IMG/VR virus record: IMGVR_UViG_3300042542_006078
DNA length: 64,000 bases
Reading direction: 5' to 3' (one strand)
DNA from: a virus
Lineage: Duplodnaviria; Caudoviricetes
The translations under genes were made by a program, and so were the position numbers. Below the pieces are notes generated by a model. That model had not been told where the DNA came from and did not search any database. It saw only the letters and a program-made list of their open reading frames with translations. Of the stretch, positions 20,478 through 58,683 are shown in pieces (position 1 is the stretch's first letter; each line of letters begins with the position of its first letter).

Positions 20478-20861
20478 ATGAAGACTTTTCTGCAATATAT
20501 CAAAGAACAAGGTGACGGCGAAGAAATGCAAACAGTTGCTCCTCCCGGCGACATGCCATTGGATAAAGAGTCTGGTGACGGTGACAAACCAATCGTCCCC
20601 GGAGATGGCCATTCTGAAAGACACAAGGAAAAGTTGAAGAATGCATTTAACAGATTCCTTAATGAAAAAATGCTTGTAGCGGTCAAACATGGAAAAATAT
20701 CTAAAGAAGACGCTCTAATGTTGTTGAAAACTGAAATATCGGCTTTCTCCAATATGATTGGCGCTGATGCAAATAGCGCAGGCACAGAAGGGAAGAATGC
20801 CATGGCAACCAATTCCGAACCTAGGTCGCCAATTCCAAATCAACCAACAGCGAGTGGCTAA
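20478..20861 (+). CDS. Hypothetical protein
   Basis: Starts MKTFLQYIKE. Confidence 0.7.
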   Translation: MKTFLQYIKEQGDGEEMQTVAPPGDMPLDKESGDGDKPIVPGDGHSERHKEKLKNAFNRFLNEKMLVAVKHGKISKEDALMLLKTEISAFSNMIGADANSAGTEGKNAMATNSEPRSPIPNQPTASG

Positions 20862-20862
20862 A

Positions 20863-22020
20863 ATGAGGCGTGGAAGAATTGTTTCTAGTGATATTACAAG
20901 AAAAAAAATACAAGAAGCTCTTAAAAACAAGCCTTCTATAAACGACAATGCTCCTACTCCGCAGCAAATCAACGATTCCAGAAAGAACATTAAAAAAAAC
21001 CATTCAAATAAAAATGTAGTTACAAATAAAGTAATAAGACATAGAAATCAACCTGTAAAAAGGGCTACTACTCAATTTTTGACAAATGCGGCAAGTAAAA
21101 CTACAAAACTTATTCTTCCCGAGCGTGGCAGTTTCAATGCTGGAATTCTTGATTTGGGAAATAAGATTCTTTGTGTTTATAGGCCAGACGAAATTCAACT
21201 CGTTGCCTGTTTTTTGAATTATGATTACAGCGTAATACCTGATTCATTTTATAGATTCAGCTTATTGCTTGCAGCCGATCCAAGGCTAATTCTCACTCCA
21301 GACAATAAAGTTTTAATGTCATATTCAAAATATGAATCAAATAGTTCAAAAGAACATATTGATGGCAATATAATCATGGACTTGAATAAGTCAGACAACA
21401 AAATATTTTTAAGTGAAACAATAAGAATAAGCCCCGAGTGGATGAAAAACAGGCAAAAAAATTGGATGCCTTTCATTCATGAGGAAAAACTATATTTCAT
21501 ATCAACAGTTTGTCCTCATGCAATTTATAATGTAGACTGGAATGGTAAAACACAATCTTCTTTAGTGCATAGCACTAATTGGGAAAATAATTGGTTTTGC
21601 AAAGAACCACTGAGAGGAAACACCAATGCCATTTTGATGAATGATGGCAATTATATTTGCACATTTCATACTGCTTCAAGATTGGAAAATTGCCACTTTT
21701 ACGATAATGGAGCCTATATTTTTGAAGGACATCCTCCTTTCAAACCTTTGTTTGCTGCCAATAGAACATATCTTCGTGCAGAGGCTGCTAGAGAACCACA
21801 CTACAGAAAAGAAGGTCTAATTGTTTGTACATTTCCGATAGGCATGATGATGCGTGATGAGAAATTAATTATAAGTTATGGCGACAATGATTCTTGTGTT
21901 AAAATTATGGAAACCACATTGGAAGAAATGAAAAAAACCATGATGCCAGTAAAAAATGTTTCTACGAGCGTTAAGTTTAATCAATCTGACAATATGTCAG
22001 AAAATGTTCCAATGATATGA
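20863..22020 (+). CDS. Basic N-terminal region plus GH130/GH43-like beta-propeller
   Basis: FNAGI, ADPRL, QKNWMPF, LRGNT, FPIG..ISYGDND; start placed just after upstream stop (track 20758). Confidence 0.65.
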   Translation: MRRGRIVSSDITRKKIQEALKNKPSINDNAPTPQQINDSRKNIKKNHSNKNVVTNKVIRHRNQPVKRATTQFLTNAASKTTKLILPERGSFNAGILDLGNKILCVYRPDEIQLVACFLNYDYSVIPDSFYRFSLLLAADPRLILTPDNKVLMSYSKYESNSSKEHIDGNIIMDLNKSDNKIFLSETIRISPEWMKNRQKNWMPFIHEEKLYFISTVCPHAIYNVDWNGKTQSSLVHSTNWENNWFCKEPLRGNTNAILMNDGNYICTFHTASRLENCHFYDNGAYIFEGHPPFKPLFAANRTYLRAEAAREPHYRKEGLIVCTFPIGMMMRDEKLIISYGDNDSCVKIMETTLEEMKKTMMPVKNVSTSVKFNQSDNMSENVPMI

Positions 22021-22037
22021 ATTAGAGGAAAGATTAT

Positions 22038-23123
22038 ATGCATTATGTTCATCGTATGACTTTGATGATTCACACAGCTTCTTGCGATAATTTTTTAGAA
22101 TCGCAGGGAATACCAAGTTATTATGAGGCTTTGCTGAGAAATTTAAGCAGACAATCTTTGCGTGAATTTGAACTTGTTTATGTTGATAGTTTTTACGAAG
22201 AAAACAGAGAGAAATTTGATAGATTGCTATCAGGATTAAATTTCATAGCAAAGCATGTTCCTATTCATAAGGACCACAGATATTGGTTTGATAAAGGCTA
22301 TTGTTATATTGCTGCTGCAAAAAATACAGGTATTTTGCATGCCGATGGCGAATTGCTTGTTACATGTGATGATGGAGAGTTTTTCCCAGACGATTTTTTA
22401 CAGCGTTACTGGAGTCATTATAAATCAGGTCATTATATGCTGGGCATGCATAATAGACTCAGGTCTATCAAGACAGAAAACGGAATACCTGTTTTCCCTA
22501 TACAAGGTGAAATTTATATAAACGACAATAGATTTAATCAACTTTACATTAACGCCAGCCCATCTTCAAAAAGCAATAATATTTTTCAACATAATAATGG
22601 GAGTTGGGCCTATGCTGGCACTAGTTTCTCTTTGCTAGATGCTCTTGAACTCAATGGTTTCAACGAAAGGATGGATGGATGTAAAAGTCTTGATGATTGT
22701 GATTTTGGTAACCGTTTACAAATTCTAGGAAGAAAATTTGTACAAGACAAAAAAGGCATATTTTATATATTGGATCATCCTAGCTATGCAGACATGACTC
22801 CAGCAAACTGGGAAGTTGGATTGGACGGTCAATCAAATCAACTTCCTCCTCCCACAAGAAGGAAAAAGATTGATAATTTAATTGCAGTTGAAAATTATGG
22901 CACATTGCGCTGTTCAGTTGAGCTTAAGGAAATAAAAGCGAATGTAAAACCATTAACTGACAATCATTTGAATATAATTCAAAGAGAAACCATACACTAT
23001 AGAAAATTTGACCCATTGGCACCAGAAAATGCTGAAAAGTTCTCAATATGGAAAGGTGTACCAACATTTGATTTGGTCAAACAAAGACAAGAACTGAGAA
23101 CATCAAAAGAATGGAGATGGTAA
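22038..23123 (+). CDS. Glycosyltransferase family 2 (GT-A fold)
   Basis: KNTGILHADGELLVTCDDG; GFNERMDG..DDCDFGNRL. Confidence 0.8.
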   Translation: MHYVHRMTLMIHTASCDNFLESQGIPSYYEALLRNLSRQSLREFELVYVDSFYEENREKFDRLLSGLNFIAKHVPIHKDHRYWFDKGYCYIAAAKNTGILHADGELLVTCDDGEFFPDDFLQRYWSHYKSGHYMLGMHNRLRSIKTENGIPVFPIQGEIYINDNRFNQLYINASPSSKSNNIFQHNNGSWAYAGTSFSLLDALELNGFNERMDGCKSLDDCDFGNRLQILGRKFVQDKKGIFYILDHPSYADMTPANWEVGLDGQSNQLPPPTRRKKIDNLIAVENYGTLRCSVELKEIKANVKPLTDNHLNIIQRETIHYRKFDPLAPENAEKFSIWKGVPTFDLVKQRQELRTSKEWRW

Positions 23124-23746
23124 TGGATATTACAAGTTTTTTAGATATACATCTTGGCACCATTGATGGATGGTGCGAAAAAGACAAGGCCAAGAAGCTC
23201 TATGAAATAATTTGTGAAATAAAGCCTAGTTTGTGCGTTGAGATTGGTGTTTTTGGAGGCTCATCTTTGCTTCCTCAGGCTCTTGCCATCAAGCATAATA
23301 CAAAAGGTGTTATAGTTGGCATTGATCCTTGGAGCAATTCTTGTGCTATAGAGGCTATGGAGAATAAAGCCAATAAAAATTGGTGGGGAAATGTTGATCT
23401 TGAATCAGTATACAAGAAATTTTTACAAAAAATTAAATTATATGAAGTTGAAGATTTTGTTCAAGTATATCGTAATAAATCCTCGGAAGTTGTAAATCGT
23501 TTTGATGACAATAGCATTGATGTTCTACACATTGATGGTAATCATTGCGAAAAAATTTCTTATGCGGATGCAATTAATTATTATCCAAAAGTCAAAATAG
23601 GTGGTTATATTTTCTTTGACGACATCAACTGGAGCGAGAACATGAAAGATATTTCTACTGAAAAGGGATTAAAATATCTCTTGCAATTCTCTGAAGAGAT
23701 GGGCGTTTTTGGCAAAGACTGCTTGTTGATGAAAAAAGTAAAGTGA
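23111..23746 (+). CDS. Class I SAM methyltransferase (Methyltransf_24-like)
   Basis: VEIGVFGGSS, IDVLHIDGNH, GGYIFFDD. Confidence 0.85.
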   Translation: MEMVMDITSFLDIHLGTIDGWCEKDKAKKLYEIICEIKPSLCVEIGVFGGSSLLPQALAIKHNTKGVIVGIDPWSNSCAIEAMENKANKNWWGNVDLESVYKKFLQKIKLYEVEDFVQVYRNKSSEVVNRFDDNSIDVLHIDGNHCEKISYADAINYYPKVKIGGYIFFDDINWSENMKDISTEKGLKYLLQFSEEMGVFGKDCLLMKKVK

Positions 23747-23788: not shown

Positions 23789-24217
23789 ATGAATCAAAAT
23801 TTTACTACAGATCAGGTTCAAGAACAGCTTGTGCAATTACAAGTTTTTTTAGAAGAAGCCAAGCAAAAGTGGGATTCAGAAAATCCACAACCAAAATCAT
23901 GGTTCGATAAGAACAAGGCATATATTGTTAAAACAACTATTTTTTTGATAGGAATAACTGATAATCTTATCAATTTAGTTGAAACATTTTTGCTTAAAGG
24001 GCCGGATAAAAAGATTGCTGTTTTAGCAATTGCCACGCAACTTTTTGACTATGTTGCTTCAAAAGCATTTCCAATATGGATTTCTCCATTTGTTCCAGTT
24101 ATCAAGCAAATAGTAATATCAATAATAATCAGCAATATGATTGAATTCATAGTTTCTAAATACAAAGAAGGTGCTTGGAAATGGGAGAATAAAACAGATG
24201 CCTCTAGAACAGTGTGA
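23789..24217 (+). CDS. Putative membrane protein
   Basis: Hydrophobic/amphipathic segments; overlaps S8 gene. Confidence 0.6.
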   Translation: MNQNFTTDQVQEQLVQLQVFLEEAKQKWDSENPQPKSWFDKNKAYIVKTTIFLIGITDNLINLVETFLLKGPDKKIAVLAIATQLFDYVASKAFPIWISPFVPVIKQIVISIIISNMIEFIVSKYKEGAWKWENKTDASRTV

Positions 24218-25145
24218 TATTATCAATTTACTTCCTTTTGTTCGTGAAGACATTGCGACAGTGCAAGATGTCCAACAAAGAGCAGGATGGGAAATTACTG
24301 CTTTCAATCTTTTGGATACTTGGTCTTTGACACAGGGAGAAGGCGTTGTTGTCGCAGTCCTCGATACAGGTTGTGATTTGAATCACGATGACCTCAAGGG
24401 AAATCTTTTAGAAGGCAGAAATTTTGTAAAAAAAGGCATGCCTCCAATAGATGATCAAGGCCATGGAAGCCATGTGGCGGGAACTATTTGCGCTTTGAAC
24501 AATGATTTTGGAGTAGTTGGAGTTGCGCCAAAAGCGAAAGTCATGCCTGTCAAAGTTTTGGACAGCAAAGGAGCAGGTAATCTGTCAGTTGTGGCAGAAG
24601 GGATCAAATGGTCTGCTGATCAAGGTGTTGATTTTATCGTAATGTCTCTTGGTTCTCCGACACCTACACCTGTGATTTATGATGCAATTAAATATGCAGA
24701 ATCAAAAGGTGTTGTAACTTGGTGTGCAGCAGGCAACGCTGGCAAGACAAGACAGATATTTTATCCAGCCGCTTATCCAGAAGTTATTGGAATAGGCGCT
24801 ATTGATGAGAATTTGCATCGTGCCAACTTTAGTTGCACAGGCCCAGATCTTGATTTTTTGGCACCGGGTGTTGGAATTTTAAGTACAGTGCCTGATAATT
24901 GGTATGCAATTTTATCTGGCACATCTATGTCAACTCCTTTCGCAGCAGGAGTTGGTTGCTTGCTTCTTTCTCATAAAAGAAAAATACAACTTGGAATCAA
25001 TCTTAAAACAGCAAAAGATTATATTGATGTTTTGAGAAATTATACTATTCCAACAACCGATCCTAAATTCGCAAATCAAAATTTTTTAGAGGGATTTGGA
25101 ATTATTGATCCACGCAAAGTTACAGAATGGATGCAGCGCAACTAA
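24198..25145 (+). CDS. Subtilisin-like S8 serine protease
   Basis: VAVLDTG, HGSHVAG, AAGN, SGTSMST (track start 24171). Confidence 0.95.
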   Translation: MPLEQCDIINLLPFVREDIATVQDVQQRAGWEITAFNLLDTWSLTQGEGVVVAVLDTGCDLNHDDLKGNLLEGRNFVKKGMPPIDDQGHGSHVAGTICALNNDFGVVGVAPKAKVMPVKVLDSKGAGNLSVVAEGIKWSADQGVDFIVMSLGSPTPTPVIYDAIKYAESKGVVTWCAAGNAGKTRQIFYPAAYPEVIGIGAIDENLHRANFSCTGPDLDFLAPGVGILSTVPDNWYAILSGTSMSTPFAAGVGCLLLSHKRKIQLGINLKTAKDYIDVLRNYTIPTTDPKFANQNFLEGFGIIDPRKVTEWMQRN

Positions 25146-25729
25146 TCTTTTGAAGGCAATACTGCTGGAGGGAGATCATAAAATATAAAATCTTGTTCGC
25201 TGCTCAAGCTGCCATATCCTTTTTGGCCTTCTTTTCCACCTTTTGCCTGACTTTGTACTTTTCCATCTTTTTCTCCTGATCCTTTCTTTTCTCCAATAAC
25301 TCCTTTTCCTTGAGCTATTTGCTGCATTGCTTTTGCAAGTTTTTGGTGCATTTGTTCCGAGTATGGTAATTTATAAACTCTTGGTTCTTTTCTTTTCTTA
25401 ATCTTGAAAGGAAACAAGTGGTTTTCATTTTGTTCTTCTTCTTCGATGCTTGATGCCCAAATCAATATGCTGCCAGAATCTGCTGTTTTTAATTTTGATG
25501 GTTCTTTAACCAAAGACCAATGAACCGTGAATTTTTCTGGCATAACTTGTTCTGTCGGCCATCCTGACAAACTACTTACAGAGTGCCAAAGACCTAAACT
25601 AAAGTAAAGTACTACCGAAACCACAATTGCTTTGAGCCACCAATATCCTTTGCCGAGAATGATATACCATAAACACATAGCAGAAATAATCACAAATGTG
25701 ATTGAAATCCCGATGATTGTGTTGTCCAT
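25142..25729 (-). CDS. Membrane-anchored protein (2 N-terminal TM helices) of the ExbB-like trio
   Basis: Two hydrophobic helices followed by soluble domain; AAGGA RBS. Confidence 0.7.
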   Translation of the reverse strand: MDNTIIGISITFVIISAMCLWYIILGKGYWWLKAIVVSVVLYFSLGLWHSVSSLSGWPTEQVMPEKFTVHWSLVKEPSKLKTADSGSILIWASSIEEEEQNENHLFPFKIKKRKEPRVYKLPYSEQMHQKLAKAMQQIAQGKGVIGEKKGSGEKDGKVQSQAKGGKEGQKGYGSLSSEQDFIFYDLPPAVLPSKD

Positions 25730-25737
25730 TTTTTTCC

Positions 25738-26373
25738 TTACGGTGCTGATGGCACCTCAAATGTGTTCTGCTTTGTCCTTCCAATCATCTTTTTCTGAAT
25801 TGTGTTTGATGATTCTATTTCGCCATTTTTGTTTAATTTGAAACGAAGAGCAGTTTTTTCATCACCTTGTGAATCCAAAACCACTTGACTTATCATCATT
25901 GTTTTAAGTTTTGGATTTACTTTGTCGATCTGAATAGTGACAGGGCATGGTCTTTTATCATTCATTTTATAAGCATGAACATTAACGCAATACTCACCAA
26001 CATGGAATCCACGGAATGTGATAATCTCTCGATTGTAGGGATATTTCATAGGCCCTTGAGGGGTTTCCACCATGTCGTTTCGGAATCCCAAATCGTCACG
26101 GTCAAGGTGCATAAGTCCAACCTCTCTGCTCCTGAAAAAAACAAGATTGCCAAGAGGGTCTTCGACATATATGTCTATATCGTTGTCCATATCATCTGGC
26201 CATGTCATAGTGACGATTAACTCTGCCTTAACTTCGACAGATGATTTGCTTTGATCTTTATTTTGGTTTATGAGAGCAAACGACAATACGAAAAGAGCCG
26301 TAAATGCAAGAAGCATATTAAAAAGCAAATCCAAAAAAGATGTATTGCAACTATAGTGCTTTCTATTGATCAT
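25738..26373 (-). CDS. Single-TM ExbD/MotB-like partner with DUF2135/YfaP-like soluble domain
   Basis: TM SFLDLLFNMLLAF with conserved-type Asp; WPDDMDNDIDIYVEDPLG, HLDRDD; ATGA overlap with upstream gene. Confidence 0.65.
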   Translation of the reverse strand: MINRKHYSCNTSFLDLLFNMLLAFTALFVLSFALINQNKDQSKSSVEVKAELIVTMTWPDDMDNDIDIYVEDPLGNLVFFRSREVGLMHLDRDDLGFRNDMVETPQGPMKYPYNREIITFRGFHVGEYCVNVHAYKMNDKRPCPVTIQIDKVNPKLKTMMISQVVLDSQGDEKTALRFKLNKNGEIESSNTIQKKMIGRTKQNTFEVPSAP

Positions 26374-26879
26374 TTTGCTTCCTGTTTTTGCGCTATTTTG
26401 TTCAGATGCAAACCAAGAATCAATGCTTGCATTTTTAGACATTGTCCGCAGATCAAACCAACTAGTGTCGTATACAAAGCAGTTGCCATGCTCTTTCCTA
26501 GTTCTGACAAAAGTCCCTGAATGGTTTGTTGGTTTGATATATCGAGGTTTTCAAAACCTGCCAACATCATGCAGAATCCCACTATTGTTCCCAACATCCC
26601 AAGATTGAGGCAAAGCTCACTTGTGAACCAGATTGTTTCTTCTCTTCTTGCAAAAGATTCGATCTTTTCTTTGGTAATATTGTTTTCATTTTCAGTCAAG
26701 AAGATATCTCTGCCACATTTAATGCTCATAATGTAAAATATAACTATGGTAGCAATGCTTAAGTAGCTTGCATCTTTTTCCCAGAGTACTTTTACGAATC
26801 CAAGGTAAAAGGAAAAGACTGTTGCCACAATGAATAATGTGAACAAAAGCCACCATTTAAGAAATGATTCAAATTTCAT
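26370..26879 (-). CDS. MotA/TolQ/ExbB proton-channel family protein
   Basis: LGMLGTIVGF and MATALYTTLVGL helices. Confidence 0.85.
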   Translation of the reverse strand: MKFESFLKWWLLFTLFIVATVFSFYLGFVKVLWEKDASYLSIATIVIFYIMSIKCGRDIFLTENENNITKEKIESFARREETIWFTSELCLNLGMLGTIVGFCMMLAGFENLDISNQQTIQGLLSELGKSMATALYTTLVGLICGQCLKMQALILGLHLNKIAQKQEAK

Positions 26880-27384
26880 TTTGAGCCTTTTTGTTTTTGA
26901 GTTTATCTACTTTCTGCTTCAATTCATTCGCCAATTCGTAATTTTCTTCAGAAATTGCCAATTGCATTTTGGATTGCAATATGACAATTTCATCTTCTGT
27001 GTTTAGATAAAATCCTGTCGTATCATGTTTTTTTGGTCTTTTGCCAATATGTTTGTATCCAACCTGACATTTTGTAATCATTGCCAGAATCTTGTCTCTG
27101 AATGATTCGTAGCACATGTCGCATCCAAGTCTTGATTTTTTGACAATGTCTTCAAAGCAACAATTGCATTGAGAACACTTTTTTATATCTTTTTGATATT
27201 TATCTGTTATATTTTCAATGATGCCCATAAGTTCTTCAAGGGCTTCCACGCTATTTTTTTTGTATTGTAAATAAGCGCACTTTTCGCAAACCATTTTTTG
27301 CACAAATTCGCCGCCATCAGAAACTAGTATCTGATAAGACTTCGAGTTTGGACAAGGCGTTCCATTAAGAGGACAGTTTTCCAT
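26869..27384 (-). CDS. mcsA: McsA-like protein (CxxC motifs + UVR domain)
   Basis: VCEKCA, CSQC..F..I.K.SRLGCDMCY..F, HIGKRP, AISEENYELANELK (track start 27390). Confidence 0.8.
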   Translation of the reverse strand: MENCPLNGTPCPNSKSYQILVSDGGEFVQKMVCEKCAYLQYKKNSVEALEELMGIIENITDKYQKDIKKCSQCNCCFEDIVKKSRLGCDMCYESFRDKILAMITKCQVGYKHIGKRPKKHDTTGFYLNTEDEIVILQSKMQLAISEENYELANELKQKVDKLKNKKAQNEI

Positions 27385-27386
27385 AT

Positions 27387-27917
27387 TCAATCCTTGTTTT
27401 CAGATGCGACGATCTTCTTCAAATCATCCAACTTTTTGTAAATTATTTTCTTTTCATCATCTGTGATTTCATCCTTGAAATCCATTAACATTTTACGGGC
27501 AAAGGAATCATATTTCTTGGAAAATCCAATTCTTATTTCCAATAATTCTTTGCTGTATTTAACAACATCTTCTTTTTTGGCGATGCTCGGATTATCAGAT
27601 TCATAATCCTTTTCCGAAAATTTATTGATTTCTTGTTTCCATGCTGATTGCAGCTTTTCTGACTCTTGGCCTATCTGTTGCGAAAAAACAAGTATAAATG
27701 TATGTTTTTCAATTGGCTTCAAAATTGAAAAACTTTTAACATCATTTGTTTTCTTGTCTATTATCTCAATTTTATTCCAATACTGTTGCGAAAAAGTAGA
27801 ATCGTTAAAATTTTTGTAAACTGAAATGGCATTTTTATAATCATTATGAGTCGCCTTTGCCTTTGCTGGTTCATCGTAGCCAACAAAAGCAAGCAAAATA
27901 ATCAAAATTATTTTCAT
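27387..27917 (-). CDS. Exported helical hypothetical protein
   Basis: AAGGGA RBS before MKIILIILLAFVG signal-like peptide (track start 27941). Confidence 0.65.
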   Translation of the reverse strand: MKIILIILLAFVGYDEPAKAKATHNDYKNAISVYKNFNDSTFSQQYWNKIEIIDKKTNDVKSFSILKPIEKHTFILVFSQQIGQESEKLQSAWKQEINKFSEKDYESDNPSIAKKEDVVKYSKELLEIRIGFSKKYDSFARKMLMDFKDEITDDEKKIIYKKLDDLKKIVASENKD

Positions 27918-27924
27918 TTTTCCC

Positions 27925-28755
27925 TTAAATAAATACCGCATCGCCTTTTATTCGCAAGCTGAAACCGTCAACCTCAAGAGATTGCGAATTTGCTGCTACA
28001 GTTCTCTTTATCCATACTGGTATTACATCCAAATTGCGAAAAGTACCCAAAGAATATGAGGATGTAGAAAATACTACGCTTGTTGGTGGTGTGGTTTCAA
28101 CATCAATTAAGGTTGCTTCTTTATTGATTGGAGAGCCATTGACAGATTTGACTATTGAAACATTTGGAGCAGAACCAGAATAAGTAAGAGAATTGGATTG
28201 TAATATGAGCAGTTCTTGATACCTCGCCCCAGAATCTCCTAAAAAATTTACTTCAAAAGAAAGAGTGTTGCTTCCTGCATCATAACTTGCTGATACTGTA
28301 ACTCCTGTCAGATAATCCAACAAATTAATTGCGGTTTGGAAATTACTTGCAAAAGTGTTGACATCAACATCATAAGAAAAATTAAAGTTATGTGTTGTTG
28401 TATCGGTATAAGTTAAGGTAATTGTACCTCCAGTAACACTACTGAAGTTGCTGATGTTCACATATTGTCTGTCATTTAGAATCTCAAATCCAATCTCCAT
28501 TTCGGCACCACTAGTTGGATCGTATAGGATGTATATTTCAGAATTATACAAAATTTCAGATGCGCTATCGTTGCTTATATAAAGGCACCTGTAGTCTATC
28601 ATTCCTAATGATGCTTCTGAATTTGTGACATTATCAAACAAAGTGTTGTTATTTACTGAATAAATTGATGGCGCACCACCCAAAGATAAGTTGGGGTTGT
28701 TGTTTGAAGAACCCCCAGAGTATAAGTAAGAAATATCGCCGGGTACAATTGGCAT
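27925..28755 (-). CDS. Putative virion structural protein
   Basis: YSGG..NNNPNLSLGG, LFDNVT..EA..G.IDYRCLYI.N, VWIKRTV motifs of a widespread phage structural family. Confidence 0.55.
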   Translation of the reverse strand: MPIVPGDISYLYSGGSSNNNPNLSLGGAPSIYSVNNNTLFDNVTNSEASLGMIDYRCLYISNDSASEILYNSEIYILYDPTSGAEMEIGFEILNDRQYVNISNFSSVTGGTITLTYTDTTTHNFNFSYDVDVNTFASNFQTAINLLDYLTGVTVSASYDAGSNTLSFEVNFLGDSGARYQELLILQSNSLTYSGSAPNVSIVKSVNGSPINKEATLIDVETTPPTSVVFSTSSYSLGTFRNLDVIPVWIKRTVAANSQSLEVDGFSLRIKGDAVFI

Positions 28756-28878
28756 CTTAACCTCAAATTTTGAACTATAATATCTATAAGTAAGTATATT
28801 TTTTTACCATTTTGGTTGATTTGAATTTTCTAGGCACTTATAATAGATGGCAAGATTGTTTCGGAAACCTGTCAAAAG

Positions 28879-29733
28879 ATGACGGACTCGGAAATAACGA
28901 AGCAAAACATGCAAGAACACAAAGATCATTACAGGCTAGATTCATCTAATCCTAGAAGGATTAATGGAAAGCGTGTAATTTGGTCTAACTTCCAAACCAA
29001 TCTTAAAATATTACAAATATACAACAAAGGTCTGGAATACTCCGTACTTTCCGATAAGTATGAAACTTGCAATCCATTGGTTTGGTGTAAAGATTTTCTT
29101 CACGATGTTGTACATTCGTCTTTAGCAAAAAGATCTTTTGAAATATATCGTCTTCGATATGATCCTTCCATAAATCCCAAGCCTTGTATTAAACAAACAA
29201 GAATATTGGTTGCAAATAGTCGTGATATCAGGATGGTAAAAAAGATACCATCATGTCTTGATTTCATTAATCAAATTGAAGACAAGCTCAATATTTCTCA
29301 CACTATTGTTCGTCCATGTATCAATCCACCAGTTGGTTATACAAAAGATAATGTTTTCATTTTCCAAGGACACAAAAGGTGGCTTTTTGCTCCTGCAATG
29401 TTGTCTTTATACACACTTTTGATAAGAGTTGGATTTTCGCATTTTCTTGGAAAAGATTATAAATCCACAATATTAGGACTTAAAGAGGGATTGATTAAAC
29501 AGTATCAATCCAAAGATGCAAGATGGATTAAAGAAATAGAACCAGCTTTTGAAAAAATCATTAGAATTGGCGACCGTAAAATTTTTTATCGTGATATCAA
29601 ACTCAATTATCCCGCTCACATGTCAACAGACATTATGCATAATAGAATGGGCATTGTTGCTTTCGCAAATGATATTAGGGCCAAGCATGCAGGACTATCT
29701 GTGGTTATGCCTTATTGGCACCTAATCAACTAA
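28879..29733 (+). CDS. Hypothetical protein coupled to COOH-NH2 ligase
   Basis: 284-aa ORF; WCKDFLHD motif; directly upstream of ligase. Confidence 0.65.
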   Translation: MTDSEITKQNMQEHKDHYRLDSSNPRRINGKRVIWSNFQTNLKILQIYNKGLEYSVLSDKYETCNPLVWCKDFLHDVVHSSLAKRSFEIYRLRYDPSINPKPCIKQTRILVANSRDIRMVKKIPSCLDFINQIEDKLNISHTIVRPCINPPVGYTKDNVFIFQGHKRWLFAPAMLSLYTLLIRVGFSHFLGKDYKSTILGLKEGLIKQYQSKDARWIKEIEPAFEKIIRIGDRKIFYRDIKLNYPAHMSTDIMHNRMGIVAFANDIRAKHAGLSVVMPYWHLIN

Positions 29734-35538: not shown

Positions 35539-35748
35539 TTATAAGGGGTTTCTTGAGCGTGTTTTTGAGATTTTGTTCTTTCTTTCATGAACCGCTTTAA
35601 TTAAACTCGCCAACGCTTGCTTTTCTTCCATTAGATTGTCTGGTGGCATATTCATGGGTTGAGAGGGGCCAAAATTTGAGCCTCCTCCACGGCAACCACA
35701 ACCGCCACTTTGCTTGGGAACCGAATCTTGTTTTTGTTCGTTTTCCAT
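35539..35748 (-). CDS. Small protein with GCGC motif
   Basis: TAAATA 4 nt upstream of ATG. Confidence 0.6.
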   Translation of the reverse strand: MENEQKQDSVPKQSGGCGCRGGGSNFGPSQPMNMPPDNLMEEKQALASLIKAVHERKNKISKTRSRNPL

Positions 35749-35776
35749 ACTCTATTTATCCTTGGGGAACAGAAAA

Positions 35777-37300
35777 ATGCATTCCGAAGATGAAATACAA
35801 AATCTTGTCAAGACTGCTCTTGATCTAGCTTATAAAAAGTTTCAAGAAAAGAAATTTGAAATAGTTTGTGTCATTGCAGAGCAAATAATCAAGATTATGC
35901 CAAATGAGTACGCCGCCATGCAAATTCTTGGTCTTTCTTACAGCGCACTTCAAAGACACGACGAATCAATTAAAATCCTAAGTGAGTGCCTTGAAAAAAA
36001 CCCAGATAATCCCGAAACACTCAATGATTTAGCATTATGCGAGTCAAATCGTGGCCTTTACGAAAAAGCAATATTATTGCTCGAAAAAGCAATTCAAATA
36101 AATCCTGAAATGTCTGAACTGCATAGCAATTTAGGGCTTCAATATAGACATAAGGAGCAACACGAAAAAGCAATAGAGTGTTTTAATAAAGCCCTCCAAA
36201 TAAAGCCTATTCCAACCACATATGCCATGATGGGAGGCTGTTATGGTGAATTAAAACAACTAGAAAAAGCAAAAAAATACATAAAAAAAGCAATTGAAAT
36301 GAAACCTGATTTCGCTGCTGCCCATGTTGATCTTGCTTCTATTCTAAAGTTGCAAGGAAAATGGCCTGATGGATTCGAGGAATATGAATGGCGATATGAT
36401 GTCCACGATCAATTGCAAGTATGGAAAAAAATATATGACCCAAACAAAAGATGGCATGGAGAAGAAATTAATGGCAAAAGAATAATCATACACACTGAAC
36501 AAGGACATGGAGATGCAATTCACTTTGTTCGTTATTTGAAACCTCTTAAAGACAGAGGTGCCTATGTTATTCTGCACTGCAATGAGATTCTGCAAGGCAT
36601 ATTTTCTTCTTTTGCTGACGAAATATTCACGCAAGAACCAGACAAAATGAGTTCTTGGCAAGAAGGGAACGGAATTCCGAAACATGAATATCATTGCCCG
36701 ATGTTGAGTCTTCCTCATATTTTCAAATCAATTTACACTTATCCATCATACATTAAAGTTGACCGTAAATTTGATCTATCCAATTACAAAGATTTTTACA
36801 AAATTGGCATAGTTTGGGCTGGCAATCCTCAACACCCGAATGACAGACAAAGATCATGCAAACTTGAGTTATTCAGGCAAATTAGTGAAATGCCAAATGT
36901 TAAATTATTTAGTTTAATGAAAGATACAAGAACAAGAGCCTATGTCCATGAAAATAAACCTATCGACTTAACAGATGGCGCAGAAGACATGAAAGTTGTT
37001 GATCTAAGGGACCAAATTCATGATTTTGAAGATACAGCAGCAATTATCAATTCTCTTGATTTAGTGATTGGTGTCGATACAGCAGTAATGCATCTAGTAG
37101 GAGCCATGGGTAAGCCTTCCATTCTTTTACTGCCTTGGAATCCAGATTGGAGATGGGAACTGGAAGGGTCATTCACAATATGGTATGGCAACATGCATAT
37201 AATCAGGCAAAAAACAAAAGGTGATTGGGAACCTGTTTTTGATGAGGCCAAACAAATATTAGAAAATTATTTAATCCGTCATCTTGATGTTATTGATTAA
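35777..37300 (+). CDS. TPR-repeat + glycosyltransferase family 9-like protein
   Basis: TPRs; EQGHGDAI.F.RY; IGIVWAGNP; DFEDTAAII..LDLVIGVDTAVMHLVGAMG; DWRW. Confidence 0.9.
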   Translation: MHSEDEIQNLVKTALDLAYKKFQEKKFEIVCVIAEQIIKIMPNEYAAMQILGLSYSALQRHDESIKILSECLEKNPDNPETLNDLALCESNRGLYEKAILLLEKAIQINPEMSELHSNLGLQYRHKEQHEKAIECFNKALQIKPIPTTYAMMGGCYGELKQLEKAKKYIKKAIEMKPDFAAAHVDLASILKLQGKWPDGFEEYEWRYDVHDQLQVWKKIYDPNKRWHGEEINGKRIIIHTEQGHGDAIHFVRYLKPLKDRGAYVILHCNEILQGIFSSFADEIFTQEPDKMSSWQEGNGIPKHEYHCPMLSLPHIFKSIYTYPSYIKVDRKFDLSNYKDFYKIGIVWAGNPQHPNDRQRSCKLELFRQISEMPNVKLFSLMKDTRTRAYVHENKPIDLTDGAEDMKVVDLRDQIHDFEDTAAIINSLDLVIGVDTAVMHLVGAMGKPSILLLPWNPDWRWELEGSFTIWYGNMHIIRQKTKGDWEPVFDEAKQILENYLIRHLDVID

Positions 37301-55116: not shown

Positions 55117-56103
55117 ATGAAACCAGATTCAGGATCACATCAACAACGACCTTACGATCAATGCAATGAAATTGCAAGTGTTCCCGATCCCATTCTAGAT
55201 CAACCGCCACCTTTTTGCGATCCCGATTCCAATCCAAATCTGAGAAGTGTAAATGATGAAAGCATGAACTGGCTTAAAGACCAGACTATGAAAAAAACAG
55301 GTTTCGGGGCAAATGCAAATAGCGATCCAATGCAAAAGGGTAAAATACTCAATGACCCGGATGCAAATAATCGTGCTGTACTTTATCGCTATTCAAGAGG
55401 TCTTCGTGGAAGCGACGAGGCCATGCTGGACCTTTTCAGGAATGTCATTGTGATTGACGAAGACGGCAAGGCTTGGCCAGTACCAATAATGCTTGGTCCT
55501 CCTGAAAAAGCTGTTGCTGCTATGATTCAGGAAAATGTAAGAAAAGATGAAACTCTTGTTGTTAACCGTATTAGACTTCCAATGATGGCAATGACACAAA
55601 CCAACATTGAATATGATATTAATAGATACACATATCATAAGGCTCTCAATTATTTCTTGGACGAAGAAGGAAAACCGTCAATAACACAGAGCGAAAGATA
55701 CAAAAAAGATACAATTTTTGGATTTGCGAGGGGTATTCCTGTCAATATGGGGTACACCGTAACTGCTTGGACACTGTATAGAGAAGACATGAACCAAATA
55801 GTAGAGCAAATAATGACAAAATTTAGCCAAGTCGCATATATAAGAGTGACTGGTGTACCATGGGAAGTGATTGTCAAATTAGACTCTGTTGCCAACAACC
55901 TGAACAATGAGCCGGGAGATCAGCAAATTAGAGTAATAAAATATGAATTTAATATGACGGCACAAACATATATACCACAACCAATCGAACGCAAGAAGGC
56001 TGTTCTGAGTGCTAAAGTTGATTTTGTTGACGGATTGACAGATGAAACTGTAACAGAAGTTTTGGCGAGAATTGAACAGTCAGTAAAGGAATTAGAATGC
56101 TAG
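55117..56103 (+). CDS. gp15: Tail terminator/sheath stabiliser, T4 gp15-like
   Basis: VPIMLG..EK, RLPMM, YDINR, PVNMGYTV..W..DMNQIVEQI; directly upstream of sheath. Confidence 0.75.
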   Translation: MKPDSGSHQQRPYDQCNEIASVPDPILDQPPPFCDPDSNPNLRSVNDESMNWLKDQTMKKTGFGANANSDPMQKGKILNDPDANNRAVLYRYSRGLRGSDEAMLDLFRNVIVIDEDGKAWPVPIMLGPPEKAVAAMIQENVRKDETLVVNRIRLPMMAMTQTNIEYDINRYTYHKALNYFLDEEGKPSITQSERYKKDTIFGFARGIPVNMGYTVTAWTLYREDMNQIVEQIMTKFSQVAYIRVTGVPWEVIVKLDSVANNLNNEPGDQQIRVIKYEFNMTAQTYIPQPIERKKAVLSAKVDFVDGLTDETVTEVLARIEQSVKELEC

Positions 56104-56322: not shown

Positions 56323-58683
56323 ATGGCAATTCTTAAAGGTTTTCCACCATCTAACACTATCAGCCCAAGCGTTAGAATTGCAGAAAAAGACCTGAGCTTC
56401 ATTGCGCCTGAGCAATCTACACATGTTGCTGGTTTGGTTGGTTTCGCCTCTAAGGGTCCAATCAACCTTCCCATTTCTGTTAGCACCTCTCGCCAATTGC
56501 ACACTATATTTGGCAATCCTCATCCTGATACCAGCGATCCATTTCTTCTTTATGCAGCAGACCAGTATCTTTTGGTTTCCAATACCCTTTATGTGGTTCG
56601 TGTTGCTGATACAGATCCGGTAAGCGATGAGCAAGCTCTCACCGCTAGTGTTGATGTGCCTGCTGCTGGTACAATTATCGAAATTATATCTGACACTGCT
56701 GGCCCATACACTTTTGATGAAGACAGCTTCTTCCGATGGAAACTCAACGATTCTCTCTCAGATAAGACTCTTGTTGTTTTGGCAGGAATTTACTCTGTGA
56801 CTGAATTGGTTTCCGAGTTGAACAATCAGATTGATACGCAATTAGACGGAATTGAATTCTACGAGAGCGACACCAATACAATCGCTGTTCAAACCGTTTG
56901 GGCCTATGGTCCAGATGCCAGCTTGGAATTTGTGTCAATTCAAAACGCCATCTACGGTGGCGCTGTTTCTGACGGCTTATCAATTCGTGACAACCCAACT
57001 GGTTTGGGCACTGGTATGACCCGTGCCTCTGTGACCGGATCAGCAGATCGTTATCCAGCAAACGGCTATACCGCTTCTGGACACTACGATCTATCAGGAT
57101 TCACAGATCCTGTTATCGAGATCGTGATTGACGGTACTGACAACATTCTGATTGATCAGGTTGTTCAGACAATCACTTTCGCTGCTGGCGCAAACTATTC
57201 AAATATCGGTGACATCGTGACTGATATCAACGATCAGAAAACTGAAAACGGCGGTACACTACCCGGTGGTTGGACAGCAGTTGCTTCAGGATTCTCTTTG
57301 AGATTTGTTACAAATGCTCACGGTGCCGATTCTCGACTCTACATTAAGCCAGCAAGCGTTTCTGCTTTCGGCCTCAGCACCACCACCAAGTCAGGAACAA
57401 CTCCTTCCGGCGAAAGTGGCGCAATTGATATTGAAACTTTGGGTTTGGTAACTGGCGGTGCAAATACAGGTGGCGATGTAACATTCACCATCAACGCTGA
57501 TTCTCCCGGTATCGATGGGAATGACACTCAGGTTGTAATTAAAAACGATATCTATGACAACAATTTCACAGTTGAGATTTATACCAATTCTGTGCAAGTT
57601 GAATCATGGGGAGGCCTTACCAAGGATGATGCAAGCCGCTTCTATGTTGAAACCTATCTTGCTCTAGTAAGCGATTATATCAGAGTATTGGACGACACTG
57701 CAATTGCAGCCGCTCCCGCAGATGGCACCTACACCTTGACAGGTGGATCAGATGGTATCCCCGCTGACCCAGATCAACAAGATGTTCTCCTGATGGGAAG
57801 CCCTGTTGGCTTCACAGGCATCTATACCTTGAGCGAACCAGAACAGGTTAACATCGACCTTATCGCTGTTCCCGGTCACTCAAGCACAGCAGTCGTTCAG
57901 GAACTTCTCGCTTTCTGCCGTGATTATCGTCAGGATTGCCTAGCAATTATCGACGCACCATTCGGCTTGACTGTGAAAGAAGTTGTATCGTGGCAGAACG
58001 GCGCACATCCTCTTAACAATGTTCGCTTTGATAGCGACTTTGGCGCACTTTACTGGCCATGGGTTAAGATTTATGACTCCTACAACAAGGTTGATGTTTG
58101 GTGTCCTCCTAGTGGCTCCATCATGGCTGTTATCGCTCGTAGCGATTTTCTTGGCGCTCCTTGGTTTGCCCCAGCCGGTTTGACCCGTGGTATTGTCCCC
58201 AATATTACCGATGTCTACAATCGTCCAACTTTGGAAGAGCGTGACCTTATGTACGGCAATCGCAACTGCGTGAACCCAATCGTTCAGTTCCCTGATGTGA
58301 ATGGTTTCGTGGTCTTCGGACAGAAGACTTTGCAGCGTATGCCGACTGCTCTGGACCGAGTAAATGTTCGTCGTCTCATGTTTTACATCGAGAAGGCAAT
58401 TCGCACCGCAAGCCGTGCTTTGCTGTTTGATCCAAATGATGAAGTTTTCCGCTCAAGGTTCGTGTCTTTGGCCGACAATATCTTGAAAAATGTTCAAGTT
58501 GGTCGTGGCCTAACTGCTTATATCATTAAGGCCGATGCCGAATTGAACACGCCGGATGTCGTTGACCGAAATGAATTCCGTGCAAGAATTGGTATTCAAC
58601 CAACCCGTGCCGCTGAATTTATGTTTATTGAGTTTTCAATCCATAGAACTGGCAGCTTCGCAGCAGGAGCCGAAACATTCTAA
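56323..58683 (+). CDS. gp18: Tail sheath protein, T4 gp18-like
   Basis: SPSVRIAEKDLS, GFASKGP, YWPW, WFAPAG..RG, FGQKT..ALDRVNVRRL, EFMFIEF. Confidence 0.97.
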   Translation: MAILKGFPPSNTISPSVRIAEKDLSFIAPEQSTHVAGLVGFASKGPINLPISVSTSRQLHTIFGNPHPDTSDPFLLYAADQYLLVSNTLYVVRVADTDPVSDEQALTASVDVPAAGTIIEIISDTAGPYTFDEDSFFRWKLNDSLSDKTLVVLAGIYSVTELVSELNNQIDTQLDGIEFYESDTNTIAVQTVWAYGPDASLEFVSIQNAIYGGAVSDGLSIRDNPTGLGTGMTRASVTGSADRYPANGYTASGHYDLSGFTDPVIEIVIDGTDNILIDQVVQTITFAAGANYSNIGDIVTDINDQKTENGGTLPGGWTAVASGFSLRFVTNAHGADSRLYIKPASVSAFGLSTTTKSGTTPSGESGAIDIETLGLVTGGANTGGDVTFTINADSPGIDGNDTQVVIKNDIYDNNFTVEIYTNSVQVESWGGLTKDDASRFYVETYLALVSDYIRVLDDTAIAAAPADGTYTLTGGSDGIPADPDQQDVLLMGSPVGFTGIYTLSEPEQVNIDLIAVPGHSSTAVVQELLAFCRDYRQDCLAIIDAPFGLTVKEVVSWQNGAHPLNNVRFDSDFGALYWPWVKIYDSYNKVDVWCPPSGSIMAVIARSDFLGAPWFAPAGLTRGIVPNITDVYNRPTLEERDLMYGNRNCVNPIVQFPDVNGFVVFGQKTLQRMPTALDRVNVRRLMFYIEKAIRTASRALLFDPNDEVFRSRFVSLADNILKNVQVGRGLTAYIIKADAELNTPDVVDRNEFRARIGIQPTRAAEFMFIEFSIHRTGSFAAGAETF

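Follow-up and report, generated by a model that had tools for sequence, protein, structure and literature searches.

Results

The 64,000-nucleotide stretch of viral DNA analyzed here (IMG/VR record IMGVR_UViG_3300042542_006078; Duplodnaviria, Caudoviricetes), referred to as the window, carries on its minus strand three adjacent genes, designated A, B, and C, whose products resemble an ion-driven motor of the MotA/ExbB type with a third subunit. Gene A (26370-26879, 169 amino acids [aa]) encodes a minimal MotA/TolQ/ExbB-type channel subunit, gene B (25738-26373, 211 aa, counted from Met24 of a 234-aa open reading frame) encodes a single-pass partner, and gene C (25142-25729, 195 aa) encodes the third protein. 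At the A/B junction the minus strand reads gcaaaATGAtcaat, and the TGA stop of A overlaps the ATG of B in an ATGA at 26370-26373. The coupling of A and B noted in an initial annotation of this DNA was thereby confirmed, and, as read from the sequence, the overlap represents predicted translational coupling of the two genes. B and C are separated by an 8-nucleotide (nt) spacer (25730-25737), with an AGGA-type ribosome site just upstream of C. Since A also overlaps the gene upstream of it by 11 nt, the trio closes a co-directional gene run.

Protein A was described in the initial annotation as a MotA/TolQ/ExbB channel with GTIVG and TALYTT helices, and this assignment held. A contains LGMLGTIVGF and MATALYTTLVG and matched the Pfam family PF01618 (MotA_ExbB) with an E value of 1.2e-7 and 32 bits, versus a curated cutoff of 22.9. 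The same family matched the A homologues of Rhizobium phage N34, of Desulfobacterales, and of Azospirillum. A has four hydrophobic segments, with about 28 residues between the second and third transmembrane (TM) helices and 14 residues past the last helix. The TM2-TM3 loop, which is cytoplasmic, is very small for the MotA_ExbB family and is poorly conserved. Gly94, Gly97, Thr98, Gly101, Ala134, Thr138, and Gly141 are kept in 99 to 100% of 103 relatives, with Thr98 and Thr138, in the last two membrane helices, at 100%. Chromosomal A proteins are longer (237 to 254 aa in the gene calls on record, versus 169 to 182 aa in phages), with a longer cytoplasmic loop and tail, and the minimal forms are those of phages and of marine alphaproteobacteria (173 aa in the latter).

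To place A among its relatives, a profile built from 34 sequences was compared with the PDB. The matches were, in order, ZorA (8vvn, 3.8e-4), MotA (8gqy, 1.4e-3), PomA (8brd), TolQ (7.4e-3), and ExbB (0.1). Every match spans the last two helices only, and the GT and TT positions of A (Thr98 and Thr138) align with those of MotA, PomA, and ZorA. Among the ZorA, MotA, and PomA alignments shown, only that to ZorA is gap-free over the inter-helix loop (TM3-loop-TM4). ZorA models were also the best matches of A in NCBIfam (ZorA_4, 1.2e-8, 34 bits versus a cutoff of 500) and PADLOC (ZorA2, 9e-6), each covering the core region only and scoring far under membership level. A had no match in PHROGs, and the protein had none among GenBank phages. 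Judged by sequence comparison, the core of A is closer to ZorA and to MotA/PomA than to ExbB. The proposal of a MotA/ExbB-type motor is upheld by hallmarks in both A and B (see below), but the nearest relatives of the A core are ZorA and MotA/PomA, not ExbB.

The AlphaFold model of B (pLDDT 74) consists of one long helix, residues 7 to 42, followed by eleven strands. The sequence SFLDLLFN lies within this predicted helix and places Asp15 (codon 26329-26331) where the hydrophobic stretch ends on the cytoplasmic side; 98% of 106 relatives retain this residue, in agreement with the earlier description of a single-TM partner bearing a membrane Asp (FLDLLF). We take this position to be that of the essential Asp in MotB and ExbD. 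The helix also weakly matched ZorB1 (PADLOC, E of 0.0017). No clear plug is present in B, and MotB_plug matched only one of 42 diverse B relatives (E of 0.089). The N terminus of B is basic, as expected for the usual N-in topology, and this positive-inside charge pattern suggests that the domain following the helix is periplasmic.

That domain was modeled as a beta-sandwich (residues ~50 to 190, bases 25804-26226, minus strand). It had been characterized in the initial annotation as neither OmpA-like nor ExbD-like and as resembling DUF2135/YfaP. The first part is consistent with Pfam, in which B had no match at an E value of ≤1, including to OmpA, ExbD (PF02472), and DUF2135 (PF09906); the second part was recovered by fold and not by Pfam. 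Among the 42 diverse relatives, Pfam matched DUF2135 in one (6e-4), PPC in four (0.016), and ExbD in one (0.001). In a fold search of AFDB, 10 of the 16 top cluster matches were named DUF2135 (E of 2e-8 to 1e-5, probability 1.00). Bacterial proteins among the matches have the same layout of one helix plus DUF2135; one of them, A0A2E3C4D5, aligned over B residues 1 to 196. Against the PDB, the fold matched calcium-binding TerD (2qz7, Z of 7.5; 2kxt, Z of 6.7), a calcium-bound Parabacteroides protein (2lge, Z of 5.8), and the C-terminal domains of subtilisin-like proteases, all with middling Z values. On the basis of the model, the soluble domain of B is a DUF2135/TerD-like beta-sandwich, a likeness at the level of fold only.

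The sandwich is rich in conserved acidic residues. Asp65, Asp67, Asp72, Asp91, Asp93, Asp94, Asp100, Glu116, and Glu172 are kept in 96 to 99% of relatives, and about ten acidic residues of B are invariant. The acidic pattern, of the D.D.D..Y..DP...F....G...H.D.DD.G type, is shared with DUF2135 (YfaP-type) and TerD domains. Because the fold relatives include calcium-binding sandwiches and the acidic residues are invariant, we infer that the B sandwich may bind divalent cations, probably calcium. In PHROGs, B matched phrog_1735 (6.4e-5), for which no function is assigned there. The B family comprises 2,094 clusters at 50% identity (E of ≤1e-3); more than 800 B relatives are found in a 90%-clustered collection, none of them named and none with a Pfam domain.

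The AlphaFold model of C (pLDDT 73) begins with two predicted membrane helices, residues 3 to 25 and 30 to 54, which form a hairpin, and the two-TM protein anticipated for this gene was thus recovered. The hairpin is followed by a small beta-rich domain with one helix (residues ~58 to 148), a Gly/Lys/Glu-rich linker (152 to 178) that is disordered (pLDDT below 50) and varies in length among relatives, and a short C-terminal strand. Conservation was read from alignments of 16 and of 104 relatives. Conserved motifs are GWP after the hairpin, PR..Y.LPY...H, and, at the C terminus, Y.LPP..LP.K (181 to 194); no conserved His is present in the membrane helices of C in these alignments. Two basic residues in the hairpin loop suggest that both ends of C, and hence its bulk, face the periplasm.

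Searches with C returned little outside its own family. C had no Pfam match (window protein plus the 16 relatives), no PDB sequence match, and no PHROGs match, and PADLOC matched neither C nor the two genes upstream of the trio. The AFDB fold search returned only unnamed members of C's own family. Fold searches were dominated by the helical hairpin and otherwise returned generic helical hairpins; some of the insignificant matches (E of >0.3) were to small beta-barrels (toxin B subunits), which we took as OB-like. A complex prediction of B residues 45 to 211 with C residues 52 to 195 scored 0.01 versus a mark of 0.32, was run with no controls, and counts neither way.

The three genes were then considered as a unit. 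More than 140 independent loci contain A, B, and C together and in this order, so the trio is not a product of chance. In IMG/VR, 204 viral contigs (up to 527 kb) carry a B relative, one of them (contig L042) with a B gene 100% identical to that of the window. In 80 viral loci, A precedes B in 77, the remaining three being cut by the contig end, and C directly follows B in 77 and lies within 1 kb in three. An insert of ~1 kb separates B from C in three viral loci (L096/L097, 4424-5339; L102, 4651-5682). In representative genomes the order A-B-C was found in 35 of 35 loci. Rhizobium phage RHph_N34 carries the trio, as does the temperate Rhizobium phage 16-3 (p038, p040, and p042, with p039 inserted). 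The DNA of the trio had no match among GenBank phages; the B protein alone reaches the Rhizobium phages.

The trio is also found in bacterial chromosomes. Of 22 alphaproteobacterial chromosomal loci, 20 have all three genes, the exceptions being L130 and L131, where no C was detected; the seven loci of the second sampled class, Gammaproteobacteria, all have the three. Overall, the trio is intact in 28 of 30 bacterial chromosomal loci, including that of Azospirillum. Since the trio is intact nearly everywhere, C is a true partner of A-B. Among the Alphaproteobacteria sampled, 42 of 301 had a B relative; for the second class (that of a betaproteobacterial carrier) the count was 34 of 300 genomes, and for the phylum of the Desulfobacterales carrier only 1 of 301. 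Carriage in the sampled Alpha- and Gammaproteobacteria is therefore 11 to 14%, or about one in eight. In four genomes (G002, G003, G292, and G389) the whole trio is present as two or three divergent paralogs, with three in one genome, and Azospirillum brasilense Sp7 has two copies.

On the 6.97-Mb chromosome of a member of the Desulfobacterales, the trio lies between acyl-CoA dehydrogenase and radical-SAM genes. Other chromosomal copies are flanked by an ABC transporter and trehalose genes on a 625-kb alphaproteobacterial contig, or lie beside suf genes on marine alphaproteobacterial contigs, beside dnaE, tilS, and smc on two chromosomes of the second class, and between an oligopeptide transporter and yajQ on the 1.75-Mb replicon p1 of Azospirillum brasilense Sp7. 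The trio is thus a chromosomal operon among housekeeping genes too and is not phage-specific. The initial annotation was correct that a phage encodes it; that it would be a phage invention or speciality was not borne out. In the survey of phage and bacterial genomes that was also proposed there, the trio proved to be a host locus, but the literature searched gave no characterization or description of it.

A midpoint-rooted tree of 135 B sequences, built with no outgroup, places the window within a large clade made up mostly of viral sequences. At the midpoint root, the clades of alphaproteobacterial chromosomal copies fall outside this viral clade, and the copy of phage 16-3 nests with chromosomal copies, including that of Azospirillum. 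To account for the well-supported branches, a minimum of four to five changes between viral and chromosomal labels is needed, undirected under this rooting.

Discussion

MotAB, ExbBD, TolQR, and ZorAB are 5:2 rotary motors, and the known branches of the MotA/ExbB family each drive a process of their own: swimming, import of nutrients, constriction of the outer membrane, gliding and secretion, or phage defense. The trio described here is a real, strongly conserved, and undescribed variant of this type of machine, carried by phages yet not specific to them. Membership of A in the family, the Thr/Thr/Asp triad, translational coupling, and strict three-gene linkage together argue that A-B is a proton-driven motor and that C is its obligatory third subunit. 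We regard the first of these conclusions as likely and the second, that C is physically part of the machine, as probable.

The closest parallel in organization is with the Tol and Ton systems. In TolQR, Asp23 and a ring of Thr145/Thr178 form the proton path and are essential (PMC12583513). The trio has the same Thr/Thr/Asp pattern, A belongs to the same Pfam family, PF01618, and the order A-B-C mirrors tolQ-tolR-tolA: a channel, an Asp-bearing single-pass partner, and a third anchored protein with a flexible reach, all three in the inner membrane. As in TonB and TolA, C has a disordered spacer (residues 152 to 178) that is putatively periplasmic, and the output of the trio, like that of Tol/Ton, is presumably periplasmic. 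The differences are also clear. B has a TerD/DUF2135-like sandwich in place of the ExbD/TolR domain, A has four hydrophobic segments with almost no cytoplasmic domain and is further by sequence from TolQ/ExbB than from ZorA/MotA, and the trio coexists with canonical copies. The initial annotation was right to count the third gene as a partner, since C is conserved along with A and B at nearly all loci. A TonB/TolA-like nature of C would go beyond this; no TonB_C or TolA domain matched C in Pfam, in PDB sequence searches, or in fold searches that the hairpin dominated.

The Mot/Pom stators share with the trio the four-helix layout of A, the profile matches to MotA and PomA, and an Asp near the cytoplasmic end of the partner helix (MotB/PomB). 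Unlike them, A has no cytoplasmic torque-generating domain, B has neither an OmpA-like domain nor a clear plug, and there is an obligatory third subunit. Nor is B a recognized member of the DUF2135 family: in contrast to DUF2135 proteins, the window B has no PF09906 match. The literature searched, in which the term DUF2135 did not occur, offered no link of this domain to a MotA-type channel. A 2025 survey of MotAB relatives described nonflagellar "generic ion transporters" without known function and mentioned no such trio or phage copies (PMC12505986).

In our working model, A, B, and C would form one inner-membrane machine of the MotA/ExbB kind. By analogy, A and B would assemble as a 5:2 rotary motor in which protons pass between Thr98/Thr138, in the last two helices of A, and Asp15 of a central B dimer. 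Proton passage would turn the A ring relative to B, and work would be delivered on the periplasmic side. Because A has almost no cytoplasmic mass and both of its partners have conserved periplasmic parts, the output should indeed be periplasmic. The acidic, probably calcium-binding sandwich of B would stand in for the OmpA-/ExbD-like domain, anchoring the machine to an envelope component or contacting it. C would ride on the A ring by its membrane hairpin, and its small domain, flexible linker, and conserved peptide at the C terminus would give it the reach that TolA provides for TolQR and TonB for ExbBD. The phage copy would be a pared-down bacterial operon, by which the phage most likely would bring a proton-powered envelope function of its own to bear on the infected cell.

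We consider the model as a whole, a proton-driven 5:2-type motor with periplasmic output, a Tol/Ton-like third subunit, and an envelope function for the phage, to be evenly balanced between right and wrong. The force-transducing role of C, by analogy with TolA/TonB, we put forward as a plausible possibility somewhat short of an even chance.

Several observations weigh against the model. Family likeness is the sole basis for the 5:2 stoichiometry. Neither sequence searches nor fold searches with whole C, the latter dominated by the hairpin, detected a likeness to TonB or TolA, and C has two helices rather than their single anchor. The core of A is nearer to ZorA than to TolQ/ExbB, which leaves a sensing or defense role open. 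Genomes with the trio keep canonical ExbB/TolQ genes, so the trio adds something and is no simple replacement. No conserved neighbor hints at an outer-membrane or cell-wall target. Finally, some related contigs are binned to phyla other than ordinary diderms, yet group with viral sequences.

The strongest of the alternatives follows from the affinity of A to ZorA. A-B could be a Zorya-like envelope sentinel that senses envelope disturbance via B and C and then blocks entry or depolarizes the cell, excluding superinfecting phages and so protecting the resident phage or the bacterium. The nearest profiles and the nearest solved relative of the two-helix core of A are ZorA (ZorA_4, ZorA2, and 8vvn), the B helix is weakly ZorB1-like, and the patchy carriage, paralogous copies in some genomes, and switches between phage and chromosome make up a pattern typical of conflict systems. 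However, A lacks the long cytoplasmic tail of ZorA (169 aa, versus 413 to 696 aa in ZorA models and structures), B lacks the peptidoglycan-binding domain of ZorB, no ZorC, ZorD, ZorE, or other effector gene adjoins the trio, and the chromosomal copies lie among housekeeping genes rather than in defense islands. We therefore consider a sentinel function unlikely.

Interference with host motors is less likely still. Here, phage A, B, or C would mix or compete with host TolQRA or ExbBD-TonB, weakening the outer membrane before lysis or shutting the receptors of competitors. Truncation of the phage versions relative to the chromosomal ones and the presence of canonical motors alongside would be expected of such a decoy, but strong constraint acts on the three genes and the ion-path residues across more than 80 viral loci, which fits a stand-alone machine better, and the A proteins of marine alphaproteobacterial chromosomes are equally small. 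A gated proton leak, in which A-B without mechanical output would tune membrane potential (e.g., in the timing of lysis) with C as a regulator, fits the near absence of cytoplasmic or periplasmic mass in A itself, but it is the least probable alternative, as it leaves unexplained why B and C have periplasmic domains that are large and highly conserved, no lysis-type family is among the 25 commonest families of 105 immediate neighbors in 55 viral loci, and the chromosomal copies occur in free-living bacteria without a lysis context.

With the proton-driven motor as the preferred reading, the trio may represent one more class, as yet without a name, of ion-driven 5:2 motors alongside Mot/Pom, Ton/Tol, Gld/Por, and Zor, with its own stator anchor (the calcium-binding beta-sandwich) and its own force transducer (C), present in about one in eight Alpha- and Gammaproteobacteria and repeatedly captured in miniature by phages for a proton-powered envelope function; we hold this broader proposal with slightly less than even confidence. 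The branch is large, compact, and self-contained, and two of its three proteins fall outside described families. Its carriage by many unrelated phages implies some benefit of a proton-driven envelope machine during infection; to our knowledge, which includes the literature searches made here, no phage-carried machine of this kind has been described. Cultured carriers (Azospirillum brasilense Sp7 and Rhizobium phages 16-3 and RHph_N34) make the trio directly testable.

Genomic setting of the trio

No fourth conserved gene was found beside the trio among the viral and chromosomal loci. In the 55 viral loci, GDP-mannose 4,6-dehydratase was the commonest neighbor (13 of the 105 immediate neighbors), and proteases, three kinds combined, accounted for 7 of 105. 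A Volactin-type actin-like protein (PF25216, E of 1.7e-66) is encoded a few kilobases downstream of the trio in 11 viral loci (e.g., L004, 8062-9069; L069, 6673-7680).

Directly after the trio in two chromosomal copies are genes for VWA-FHA and PP2C-FGE-sulfatase proteins (L152, 10299-11825; L153, 10082-11998). Elsewhere, VWA domains reportedly accompany DUF2135 domains. The VWA-FHA and PP2C genes were rejected as partners of the trio because they were not found beside other copies. In small marine alphaproteobacteria (L154/L155, 2610-4865), the trio is oriented divergently to an operon ~5 kb away whose last gene encodes a TonB-dependent receptor, one of only two such genes in the 1.1-Mb genome G005. 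This proximity is absent in other lineages and may be coincidence. That the trio substitutes for a missing ExbB/TolQ in these small genomes was considered and rejected because three canonical copies were found.

The window derives from an uncultured T4-like myovirus, and its phage origin, as first annotated, is corroborated by genes for a T4 gp15-type tail-sheath stabilizer (55117-56103) and a tail sheath (56323-58683). The sheath is at most ~35% identical to that of any isolate. The GC content is ~36%, and no tRNA genes are present in the window. In promoter and terminator scans of positions 24900 to 29100, sites were no more numerous than in shuffled sequence.

Directly upstream of A is an McsA-like gene (26869-27390, minus strand, 173 aa) whose product has a UVR motif as well as Cys-rich zinc fingers (NCBIfam McsA, 1.4e-14, far under the cutoff; Pfam UVR, 2e-5). 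An McsA-like protein is unusual cargo for a phage, and the gene adjoins the trio in this phage lineage only (4 of 80 viral loci). The six-gene run U3-U2-McsA-like-A-B-C was accordingly rejected as a general unit. On the other side of the trio, an S8 subtilase gene (24171-25145, plus strand) is convergent with C, with a 4-nt overlap of their ends; in a related 262-kb contig, its homologue (L003, 6417-8609) is interrupted by an intein that includes a LAGLIDADG homing endonuclease. A cluster of glycan-related genes occupies 20758-23746 and 35714-37300 of the window, with members that include a GH130-like gene, a GT2 gene, a further 211-aa gene, and a gene for a TPR protein with a GT9 heptosyltransferase-like end.

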